From a virus (taxonomy: Duplodnaviria > Caudoviricetes): a stretch of DNA of 24,016 nucleotides. The notes below the pieces were generated by a model. The model saw only the letters and a program-made list of their open reading frames with translations. It did no database searches and was not told the DNA's origin. The position numbers and the translations under genes were made by a program. The DNA is taken from IMG/VR virus record IMGVR_UViG_3300025838_000134, positions 1 to 24,016 of that record, one strand, 5' to 3'. This document shows positions 12,790-14,161 of the stretch, piece by piece (the first letter of the stretch is position 1; every line of letters begins with the position of its first letter).

Positions 12790-13098
12790 ATGGCACTCAC
12801 ACACTCGGTTGTTACGCTTAATGCCTCAACCGCAACCCTACTTAACAATGACCCTGCGGTTACTGTTGGCCCAGAAGTTCGTAACACCTGGCAGTATGGA
12901 AGCATCTCTATTCAGAACACAGACGCATCTATTGTTGTCTATGTAGGCGCCTCTGGCGTTACCTCCACTTCTTATGGCGTATCACTTGCCGCTGGCGCTT
13001 CAATTACCCTTGATAGCCTCAGCCCAGAAGAAAAAATCTATGCAATTGCAGCATCTGGCAGCCCTAAAGTTGCAGTATTGATGGTTACAACTGCATGA
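12790..13098 (+). CDS. Small beta-sandwich protein, possible virion decoration
   Basis: AAGGAG RBS; ISIQNTD..VVYVG..GVT...YGVSLAAGASITLD...IYAIA. Confidence 0.65.
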   Translation: MALTHSVVTLNASTATLLNNDPAVTVGPEVRNTWQYGSISIQNTDASIVVYVGASGVTSTSYGVSLAAGASITLDSLSPEEKIYAIAASGSPKVAVLMVTTA

Positions 13099-13184
13099 GC
13101 ATCCGCGTGACTAAAAAGGGTGAGGCTATCTCTATCAAGTCCTCATCTAAGAAGTCAACCAAGATTGTTATTAAGAAGCCATAA
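13095..13184 (+). CDS. Lys-rich micro-protein 1 (29 aa)
   Basis: MSIRVTKKGEAISIKSSSKKSTKIVIKKP*; ATGA overlap upstream, TAATG overlap downstream. Confidence 0.55.
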   Translation: MSIRVTKKGEAISIKSSSKKSTKIVIKKP

Positions 13185-13315
13185 TGCCATTTAAGAGCCG
13201 TGCCCAGGAGAAGTGGATGTATGCCACTCACCCTAAGATGGCGCGCCAATGGCAGAAAGAAACACCAAAAGGAAAACTACCCGAGAAGGTAAAGGATAAA
13301 AAAGATGGCAAATAA
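13184..13315 (+). CDS. Lys-rich micro-protein 2 (43 aa)
   Basis: MPFKSRAQEKWMYATHPKMARQWQKETPKGKLPEKVKDKKDGK*; TAATG coupling. Confidence 0.75.
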   Translation: MPFKSRAQEKWMYATHPKMARQWQKETPKGKLPEKVKDKKDGK

Positions 13316-13406
13316 AGAACAAAAAGGAAACGCCAACCAGAAGAAAGAGCCAAAGATGACTCTTAAAGAGAAGCGCGCCGCAAAGCAAGCAAAGAAGGAT
13401 AAATAA
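13305..13406 (+). CDS. Lys-rich micro-protein 3 (33 aa)
   Basis: MANKEQKGNANQKKEPKMTLKEKRAAKQAKKDK*; AAGGA RBS; stop overlaps next ATG. Confidence 0.65.
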   Translation: MANKEQKGNANQKKEPKMTLKEKRAAKQAKKDK

Positions 13407-13579
13407 TGGCTAAGGCAAAACTAGGTTCAGGAGCACGTTTTAAGGCTGTAGAGAAGGCTGCCGCTAAGAGCGGTGCCACAGATCCAGCCGCAGTTGCCGC
13501 TGCAGCAGGCCGTAAGAAGTATGGTCAGAAGAAGATGACCAAGCTTGCTGTTAAGGGTAAGAAAGACGAGAAGAAGTAA
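13406..13579 (+). CDS. Lys/Ala-rich micro-protein 4 (57 aa)
   Basis: MAKAKLGSGARFKAVEKAAAKSGATDPAAVAAAAGRKKYGQKKMTKLAVKGKKDEKK*; TAATG at both ends. Confidence 0.75.
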   Translation: MAKAKLGSGARFKAVEKAAAKSGATDPAAVAAAAGRKKYGQKKMTKLAVKGKKDEKK

Positions 13580-13749
13580 TGGCTAAAGAAAAACCTCTTT
13601 GGGATAAGAAAGACCCAGACGGTGGTAAGCATAGTAAACTAAGTAAGAGCCAGAAGGCCTCAGCCCGTGCTAAAGCCAAAGCCGCTGGTCGCCCATACCC
13701 AAATGCGGTTGACAACATCGCAGCCGCCCGTAAGAAAAAAGGTAAGTAA
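13579..13749 (+). CDS. Lys/Ala-rich micro-protein 5 (56 aa)
   Basis: MAKEKPLWDKKDPDGGKHSKLSKSQKASARAKAKAAGRPYPNAVDNIAAARKKKGK*. Confidence 0.75.
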   Translation: MAKEKPLWDKKDPDGGKHSKLSKSQKASARAKAKAAGRPYPNAVDNIAAARKKKGK

Positions 13750-13750
13750 T

Positions 13751-13909
13751 ATGTGCATGACTTGTGGATGCAAGAAGAAAAAGGGTGAAGCCGGATACGG
13801 CAAGGGAAAGAGCATGTCCCCTAAGCAGAAGAAGATTGCTTCAGCTGCTGCCCCAAAAGATAAGATCACCGGAGCTGACTTCAAGGCTCTTAAGAAGAAG
13901 GGTAAGTAA
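13751..13909 (+). CDS. Lys-rich micro-protein 6 with N-terminal MCxxCGC (52 aa)
   Basis: MCMTCGCKKKKGEAGYGKGKSMSPKQKKIA...KITGADFKALKKKGK*; ATG 1 nt after previous stop, AAGGT RBS. Confidence 0.75.
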   Translation: MCMTCGCKKKKGEAGYGKGKSMSPKQKKIASAAAPKDKITGADFKALKKKGK

Positions 13910-14161
13910 ATGTGCGCTAAGTGTGGCTGTGGATGTAAGGCTGGCAAGCCAGCAGCAGGTTGCAAGTGCACCTGTGCTACCTGTAAGTCAGCACGTATGA
14001 AGGCTGATAAGAAGTCTGACGCTAAAATTGAAAAGGGTATGAACCCTAAGCAGAAGGCGGCTTTTGAGAAGGCTGATAAGAAGATGGATAAGAAGAACCC
14101 ATCTGCTAAAGCCGATATGAAGATGGACAAGGCGTTGGCCAAGAAGGTCAAAAAGAAGTAA
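13910..14161 (+). CDS. Lys-rich protein 7 with 8-Cys metallothionein-like N-terminus (83 aa)
   Basis: MCAKCGCGCKAGKPAAGCKCTCATC followed by a K/A/D/M-rich helical tail. Confidence 0.78.
   Translation: MCAKCGCGCKAGKPAAGCKCTCATCKSARMKADKKSDAKIEKGMNPKQKAAFEKADKKMDKKNPSAKADMKMDKALAKKVKKK

Follow-up and report, generated by a model that had tools for sequence, protein, structure and literature searches.

Among the closest described systems, the internal proteins (IPs) of phage T4, namely IPI, IPII and IPIII, are small, basic and variable between related phages, and bear at the N-terminus a targeting propeptide of 10 residues that closes with a gp21 site (accessible part of PMC9026906). In-head companions of DNA that also supply counter-charge are known mostly from T4 and giant phages. 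The element considered here is a cassette of seven small, basic genes (13095 to 14161) encoded in a 24,016-nucleotide fragment of a tailed phage of the Caudoviricetes (IMG/VR record IMGVR_UViG_3300025838_000134, positions 1 to 24,016), hereafter the window, with an estimated completeness of ~25%. The same location, within the head and ejected with the DNA, is proposed for its products, but these are smaller than the T4 IPs (3–9 kDa), are encoded between neck and tail genes at 3–8 per genome and have no propeptide, and no sequence homology of the seven to the T4 IP families was found in Pfam, PHROG or NCBIfam. The likeness to T4 IPs is thus one of proposed working and extends neither to the leader nor to homology. 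The reading developed below, to which we give about an even chance, is that the cassette encodes head-internal, DNA-binding cargo made as free peptides, a protease-free counterpart of the processed internal proteins of the T4 type.

Several other systems share components with this locus. The T4-GC119 proteins of T4-like cyanophages (Syn9 gp114, S-SM1 SSM1_115; DUF6321, PF19846) consist of Lys-rich modules of the same pool and have a late neck-region location, but they are 440–500 amino acids long and punctuated by Glu, whereas the window modules are separate genes, none of which matches DUF6321 or DUF6496 in Pfam. Capsid-side clusters of T7-like pelagiphages and of cyanophage P-SCSP1k comprise two or three Lys-rich genes, set close together and 34–84 amino acids long, including DUF6321; they differ in having other modules except DUF6321, no Cys heads and fewer genes, all annotated as hypothetical. 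The ORF2 and ORF5 modules of the cassette (ORF, open reading frame) are elsewhere fused to the InPase, ART-PolyVal and lysozyme domains of phage polyvalent proteins (described in the accessible part of PMC5512222), unlike which the window peptides carry no enzyme domain. A literature search found no paper on the cassette or on DUF6321 or DUF6496, although subscription journals and supplements may hold one. New at this locus are the fully unfused form, the separate accounts of Lys and Gly in the tails, the apparent lateral exchange, the ORF2 leader pattern and the naming of cultured carriers.

The seven genes and their products

The cassette had been proposed from the sequence alone as a hidden operon of seven coupled, highly basic micro-proteins, and all seven ORFs were found on the plus strand with the lengths, C-terminal tails and strong terminator then described. 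ORF1 (13095..13184; 29 amino acids, net charge +8) is restricted to close relatives (8 loci), always directly 3' of a non-basic 102-amino-acid gene (12790..13098, plus strand) to which it is ATGA-coupled and whose homologues or look-alikes lie, in relatives, on one side of the cassette or the other. ORF2 (13184..13315; 43 amino acids) is a two-helix MPFKS module, similar to PHROG 1375, that also serves many long proteins as an N-terminal leader, and ORF3 (13305..13406; 33 amino acids, net charge +8) has no family match and occurs in 11 loci. ORF4 (13406..13579; 57 amino acids) is an Ala/Lys-rich module that is also embedded in long proteins, and ORF5 (13579..13749; 56 amino acids) is a predicted helix-loop-helix that is found either free-standing or embedded. 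ORF6 (13751..13909; 52 amino acids) combines an N-terminal CxxCGC head with a degenerate EF-hand-like module, and ORF7 (13910..14161; 83 amino acids), usually the last gene of the cassette, combines a Cys-rich head (eight Cys, CxxCGC start) with a Lys/Asp-rich module. The intrinsic terminator (14168..14193, plus strand; fold z -3.5) consists of a GC hairpin at 14168–14185 and a T-run, and most relatives have a hairpin with an altered stem sequence after the last cassette gene.

The junctions also agree with the earlier description, comprising the ATGA overlap with the 102-amino-acid gene, three TAATG overlaps, one 11-nucleotide overlap, one 1-nucleotide gap and one 0-nucleotide gap; the resulting coupled chain of seven ORFs compares with at most three in 300 dinucleotide shuffles. 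The absence of five ORFs from the program-made ORF track and the wrong start of a sixth are reproduced by an 80-amino-acid cut-off, the ORF finder giving for ORF6, whose ATG start is read from the sequence, a GTG-started 80-amino-acid version from 13667. The ratio of nonsynonymous to synonymous substitutions (dN/dS) for ORF1 to ORF7 is 0.18, 0.10, 0.013, 0.08, 0.03, 0.15 and 0.14, with 5–10 distinct homologues each from a set filtered at at least 75% amino acid identity. An excess of third-position changes is also seen in alignments selected on DNA only, with variable sites at codon positions 1/2/3 of 1/2/16 for ORF3 and 6/4/29 for ORF5, so every ORF has homologues and is under purifying selection. 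The seven ORFs are real, coupled, jointly terminated genes that selection preserves. They do not form a separate operon: a longer late block with all genes in the same direction ends, on its 3' side, with the cassette, and because the latter is coupled to the upstream gene and the region 11900–15500 holds no excess of promoter-like sites (3 vs 5.5 expected), it appears to be the end of a late transcription unit.

The description of the products as Lys- and Ala-rich holds for Lys, which makes up 25–33% of all seven, and only partly for Ala (3–26%), four of them being Ala-rich (at least 15%). Each ORF has an isoelectric point of 9.8–10.8 and a net charge of +8 to +18, which sums to +80 over the 38 kDa of all seven peptides. 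The 40 loci described in the next section contribute a pool of 206 cassette members, or 174 unique peptides, from which 13 ORFs judged post-terminator or spurious were left out. At least three Lys among the last five residues are found in 119 of these 174 peptides (shuffled mean 25). Genes without a coupled downstream ORF keep this tail beyond what composition gives (37/53; shuffled mean 9), which makes it a protein-level feature and led us to reject the idea that Lys tails arise solely as a side effect of ribosome-binding sites. By contrast, a Gly among the four final residues is largely restricted to coupled genes (79/120 vs 7/53 uncoupled), and the Gly of KKGK-type tails therefore probably encodes part of the next gene's ribosome-binding site. 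That the Lys tail acts as a packaging signal, as the sequence-only reading had suggested, is conjecture.

The core sequences are mostly unrelated, as had been noticed, with the exception that ORF6 and ORF7 share the CxxCGC head, with Cys at positions 2, 5 and 7. Among the pool, CxxCGC is present in 49 of the 174 unique peptides, and a Cys-x-x-Cys start occurs in 39 of the 40 loci. The same spacing of Cys2, Cys5 and Cys7 at the N-terminus characterizes the HypB site (NF053667), which holds Ni(II) by means of these three Cys and the N-terminal amine (accessible part of PMC12284835). Unlike HypB, ORF6 and ORF7 lack a GTPase domain and have a polybasic instead of an acidic/His-rich body, and the HypB prefix model scores ORF6 at 19.1 bits against a cut-off of 30 and gives no hit for ORF7. 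By analogy, the CxxCGC heads of ORF6 and ORF7 probably bind a metal, Zn or Ni.

Membership in the histone H1 or protamine families, which the composition had suggested, was not supported: no Pfam family was found at E ≤ 0.1 for any of the seven, and a sequence search of the PDB returned nothing for the ORF2 and ORF4 profiles and for ORF5 only a compositional hit (dermadistinctin-K, E 0.27). An Atlas search with ORF4 and ORF7 gave only unnamed viral clusters. The structural models of ORF2 and ORF5 both comprise two helices (pLDDT, or predicted local distance difference test score, of 78 and 80, respectively; residues 23–35 and 43–54 in ORF5), so the ORF5 model lacks the three helices of the histone fold, and the fold search with ORF2 found nothing meaningful. 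Structural comparison of ORF5 with the PDB ranked histone folds and AAA+ lid helices highest, without any significant match (Foldseek E ≥ 1.6; VIA Z ≤ 3.9). Residues 22–56 of ORF5 superpose without gaps on residues 62–96 of histone H4 (root-mean-square deviation 1.1, Z 3.8), placing Arg38 and Asp45, which are invariant among ORF5 homologues, on H4 positions 78 and 85, the salt-bridge pair. These residues fall on the Arg and Asp of the histone-fold RxTxxxxD motif (accessible part of PMC11390915), with Tyr40 at the Thr position. Compared with the histone fold, ORF5 has no α1 and a short α2, its Tyr replaces the Thr that binds DNA, and AAA+ lid helices match it about equally; its modelled half-histone resemblance is a weak lead and not membership.

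A conserved slot and a shared pool of modules

The slot is bounded upstream by a 174-amino-acid probable head-closure or neck protein (12257..12781, plus strand), a homologue of gp142 of Streptomyces phage BRock (33% identity to the BRock locus) whose neighbours in the Atlas belong to families of head-tail joining and neck proteins (0.85–0.89, as a lead only), and downstream by a 218-amino-acid probable tail-completion protein (14742..15398, plus strand), a homologue of BRock gp139 and of gp87 of phage LuckySocke, encoded before the sheath gene. Thirty-eight loci were found through the neck protein, 26 of which extend to the 218-amino-acid gene, and all 25 distinct loci among the latter carry 3–7 Lys-rich micro-ORFs between the two. 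With 14 distinct ORF5-anchored loci and the window added, cassettes of 3–8 genes are present in 40 of 40 loci, at the position between neck and tail genes that the sequence-only reading had given; identity of the neck protein falls as low as 33%.

The content of this slot is gained, lost, fused and exchanged, while the slot itself is kept across the family. Relatives lose window genes and gain others, including DUF6321 in 9 of the 40 loci and DUF6496 in 8 loci, two members of each being confirmed by Pfam above cut-off. ORF6 and ORF7 are fusions by sequence comparison, their C-terminal halves occurring without a Cys head in 4 and 6 loci, respectively. In two loci (L041 and L048), ORF3–6 are 95–100% identical to the window at the DNA level, compared with only ~66–69% for the flanking neck and terminator genes, which points to recent lateral exchange of ORF3–6; the pattern is seen in four contigs, though assembly chimeras are conceivable. 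Foreign genes also occur in or just after the cassettes of relatives, namely HNH-like genes and a DNA methyltransferase-like gene (L083:6530–6886; L112:6471–6854; L027:3924–5314) and a 154-amino-acid protein that is ADP-ribosyltransferase-like by eye and has no Pfam hit (L035:7237–7701). Some relatives of the ORF6 C-terminal half (L020:6685–6858, L022, L045, L049) have a canonical EF-hand-like DxDxDG loop, degenerate in the window version, and the EF-hand/dockerin Pfam hits of such relatives are weak and below cut-off. DUF6321 lies upstream of the terminase region in one genome (G002), and in another (G005) copies of ORF5 and DUF6321 (L054, around 6001–8522) are ~50 kb from the same genome's neck cassette.

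Beyond this slot, the modules recur both as parts of long proteins and as free genes. ORF5 corresponds to PHROG 34011 (E 3.9e-17, residues 1–55), and its profile matched 759 cluster representatives; among the best 150 of these matches, 85 are at least 120 amino acids long, 82 embedded copies were anchored, and the module lies mid-protein in proteins of 300–800 amino acids. Upstream of the embedded copies, EE/[ILVM]xE or xGG motifs are present in 61 of 71 windows (random mean 10.7, maximum 19), and downstream, a Glu or GG motif is present in 41 of 47 windows (random mean 6.8, maximum 14), the motifs having been picked after viewing the data and the long proteins being mutually related. T4 gp21 cleaves after L/I-X-E (PMC9026906), and, judging from these sequences, the ORF5 module in long proteins often has likely protease cut sites at its borders. 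Among 76 of the 85 long proteins that were scanned, DUF6321 is present in 16 and ART-PolyVal in 3. Embedded copies of ORF4 were found in 86 longer proteins, 41 times internally, 38 times C-terminally (some of these perhaps with mis-called starts) and 7 times N-terminally, and in one such protein the C-terminal half of ORF6 is present as well. For ORF2, 112 of 121 domain hits (from the best 120 of 870 matches) lie at the head of long proteins, although its profile begins at Met and so favours N-terminal hits; partner domains in 24 proteins picked from the ORF4 and ORF2 matches include InPase, lysozyme, SET and rubrerythrin. No ORF1, ORF3 or ORF7 module was found in 282 long proteins, a weak negative since the set was gathered with ORF2, ORF4 and ORF5 only.

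Free copies are encoded by cultured phages, ORF5 by Synechococcus phage MinM2 as MM2_18 (E 1e-16, by hidden Markov model, HMM) and ORF2 by Streptomyces phage FlowerPower as gp48 (E 1e-12). The tblastn searches with ORF5 and ORF4 found nothing, and because the HMM did find ORF5 in MinM2, these blanks reflect filtering. DUF6321 matched 494 phage records, and the same modules occur in phages of Actinobacteria, cyanobacteria and Pelagibacter. The modules are therefore not unique to this phage but are spread over several lineages, some of them with cultured members. An unrelated group of phages has ORF5 homologues flanked by the genes for the major capsid protein and a head-tail adaptor (L092, with similar layouts elsewhere), and pool members adjoin capsid, scaffold or portal genes in the cultured phages HTVC304P, Eistla, P-SCSP1k, S-CBS4 and pA2SJ1. 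DUF6321 is part of a basic micro-gene cluster adjoining the capsid gene in three T7-like phages, and DUF6496 precedes the portal gene in a Vibrio phage and lies between portal and head genes in S-CBS4. P-SCSP1k also has an unannotated short Lys-tailed ORF (L122:4876–4946), which apparently separates the annotated DUF6321 gene from that of the capsid. The ‘RecA-like recombination protein’ of MinM2 (L124:5001–5246) is an 81-amino-acid DUF6321-type protein with 64% identity to that of L075, and its annotation looks wrong.

A proposed location in the head weighed against other roles

Of the roles proposed from the sequence alone, a capsid-internal set remains the best reading, carried by the sharing of modules with long proteins punctuated by Glu and Gly-Gly and by the detection of two linked proteins in S-SM1. 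In Table S8 of PMC3037559, T4-GC119 and T4-GC190 are detected with 13 and 25 counts, respectively, in the first proteomic column; its header is not preserved, and the text together with the pattern of presence led us to assign it to S-SM1. The T4-GC119 protein SSM1_115 of S-SM1 carries DUF6321 (E 2.8e-22), and a domain of the ORF5-bearing protein P0158 is 40% identical to SSM1_190 (T4-GC190). InPase-bearing polyvalent proteins have likewise been predicted to be packaged in virions (PMC5512222). Bulk condensation of DNA, the further role suggested, is not supported, as ~240 copies of each peptide would be needed to neutralise 10% of a 95-kb genome; since the T4 head holds ~300 copies of each IP (PMC9026906), a partial contribution to charge is plausible.

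According to this model of head cargo, translational coupling would yield a roughly equal late output of all seven peptides, which would enter the scaffold-built prohead or be carried along by the DNA through electrostatic binding. Phosphate contacts would come from the Lys tails and shape from the small folded cores, with the CxxCGC heads of ORF6 and ORF7 probably clamping a Zn or Ni ion; the peptides would offset part of the genome charge and probably go out together with the DNA during injection. Where a phage has a head protease, it would make the same modules as cleavable polyproteins, and the window family would encode them ready-cut; in this family the S78 peptidase (PF04586) was found in none of five near-complete relatives in a search whose positive control worked. 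The S77 family (PF03420) was also found in 0/5, in a search without any working positive control.

Several observations weigh against packaging. The seven translations show no targeting sequence common to their N-termini, the junction motifs carry the reservations given above, and the ORF5-bearing long proteins come without genomic context, which leaves their T4-like origin presumptive. Homologues in MinM2 and FlowerPower adjoin holin genes. BRock and LuckySocke have no cassette at this slot despite a homologous neck-tail block, and the ORF2, ORF5 and DUF6321 modules were found nowhere in their genomes, so the cassette is dispensable for this type of virion. The ORF5 and DUF6321 genes of G005 lie far from the neck genes and next to one for queuine tRNA-ribosyltransferase, a placement that the head-cargo model leaves unexplained. 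The S-SM1 links are one step removed from the cassette, the detected peptides of the long proteins are not listed, and in the accessible data of PMC3037559 T4-GC119 is undetected in Syn9 virions and T4-GC190 in those of S-PM2 and Syn9. No virion proteomics mappable to cassette genes was found in the accessible parts of PMC10575957, PMC9860041, PMC9927357, PMC12801897 and PMC6224464, whose supplements may bear on the matter. Trypsin is computed to leave 0–4 peptides of at least 7 residues per window protein, and non-detection in tryptic proteomics is therefore to be expected.

The same evidence bears on the alternatives. The peptides could be packaged and yet be selected for a task after injection, each blocking a host defence or taking over a host machine with DNA binding incidental, as T4 IPI inhibits restriction (PMC9026906). 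Rapid gain, loss and lateral exchange of genes (ORF3–6 of L041 and L048), the invariant non-basic residues of ORF5 and ORF2, which suggest specific contacts, and the fusions to ART, InPase and SET domains speak for such effectors; we nevertheless consider them unlikely, as selection is strongly purifying and not diversifying, and the recurrence of the same modules in phages of Actinobacteria, cyanobacteria and Pelagibacter is better explained by a universal ligand such as DNA. Equally, the peptides could stay in the late cell as unpackaged nucleic-acid chaperones, compacting replicated DNA or binding RNA or ribosomes, or as metal buffers. The missing leader, the S78 result, the non-detection of T4-GC119 in Syn9, the copy away from the structural block in G005 and the CxxC heads in 39/40 loci would fit this role, but the head-protease-type junctions of the embedded copies and the repeated adjacency to capsid, scaffold or portal genes point to the prohead, and the proteomic blanks carry little weight given so few tryptic peptides, so that a purely cellular role seems rather improbable.

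A cationic lysis peptide, phiKT gp28, is known from phage, and homologues of cassette genes adjoin holin or lysin genes in MinM2, FlowerPower and pA2SJ1. Membrane-active lysis helpers, or alternatively decorations of the particle surface, are nevertheless a very improbable identity for the seven peptides, since hydrophobic residues make up merely 9–28% of them, the cassette of the window family sits between neck and tail genes, and embedding mid-way in proteins of 300–800 amino acids fits poorly. Finally, the ORFs could be a by-product of an A-rich tract, with the real gene being an antisense frame of 172 amino acids (13660–14178), or with no gene at all. This frame shares third codon positions with ORF6 and ORF7 and is open in 12 of 14 alignable relatives (duplicate contigs included), but it contains stops in the other two (L045 and L049), for which it was rejected as a real gene, and it spans ORF6 and ORF7 only; with sense starts, stops and coupling persisting in 40 loci and sense modules recurring in proteins elsewhere, this explanation has next to no probability.

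A wider version of the head-cargo model, which we regard as doubtful, is that tailed phages of different lineages draw on one library of miniature domains that bind DNA, a ‘chromatin kit’ made of protein for the packaged genome, in which ORF5 would act as a half-histone-fold peptide, ORF6 and ORF7 as metal-clamped, Cys-headed peptides and ORF2 as a portable loading leader towing enzymes into the head, deployed as coupled micro-genes in protease-free phages and as cleavable polyproteins in protease-bearing ones.

The phage, its surroundings and the wider meaning

Profile searches with PHROG and Pfam place sheath, tube and baseplate-hub genes in the window. Matches of the 218-amino-acid protein in cultured phages are confined to the Streptomyces phages BRock, LuckySocke and Alone3, and the capsid proteins of five near-complete relatives (88–100 kb) are 65–74% identical to that of BRock over the main stretch; for those of L134–L137 the alignment falls into two parts, with a small insertion around residue 270. 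By these sequence relationships the window phage belongs to the BRock-like myovirus group, and since WhiB is also present in 5/5 near-complete relatives, an actinobacterial host is likely. The head module has the order portal-scaffold-capsid with no gene in between in the two relatives read. A blastn search of the cassette region against cultured phages gave no match, and among the sequencing runs listed none was an RNA data set holding it.

After the terminator, the region 14190–14270 contains, by eye and in most relatives, a conserved CTTTAHCCTTA-like box followed by an RTGC-loop hairpin, whose stem letters vary with pairing kept, and by two further TGCG/TGC repeats. Rfam gave no match above threshold here, with one sub-threshold chance match, and these elements may provide the tail genes with a late promoter or a regulatory site. 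Next comes an eighth small gene, also conserved, at 14271–14426 (51 amino acids, net charge +1), with an AGGAG ribosome-binding site, a basic C-terminus and no family match in PHROG or Pfam. Elsewhere in the window, a minus-strand cupin-like gene and glycosylase-like, TPR-like and methyltransferase-like ORFs, assigned by eye, break up a fibre-like region (3715–6400).

Peptides of this kind would be missed by both annotation and proteomics, because they are shorter than gene callers usually accept and give few peptides on trypsin digestion. Should they prove to be packaged, a common pool of modules would explain many hypothetical genes of aquatic phages, and the ORF2 leader could represent a new route for loading proteins into heads. 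The cultured carriers, MinM2, FlowerPower and the pelagiphages, make packaging directly testable.

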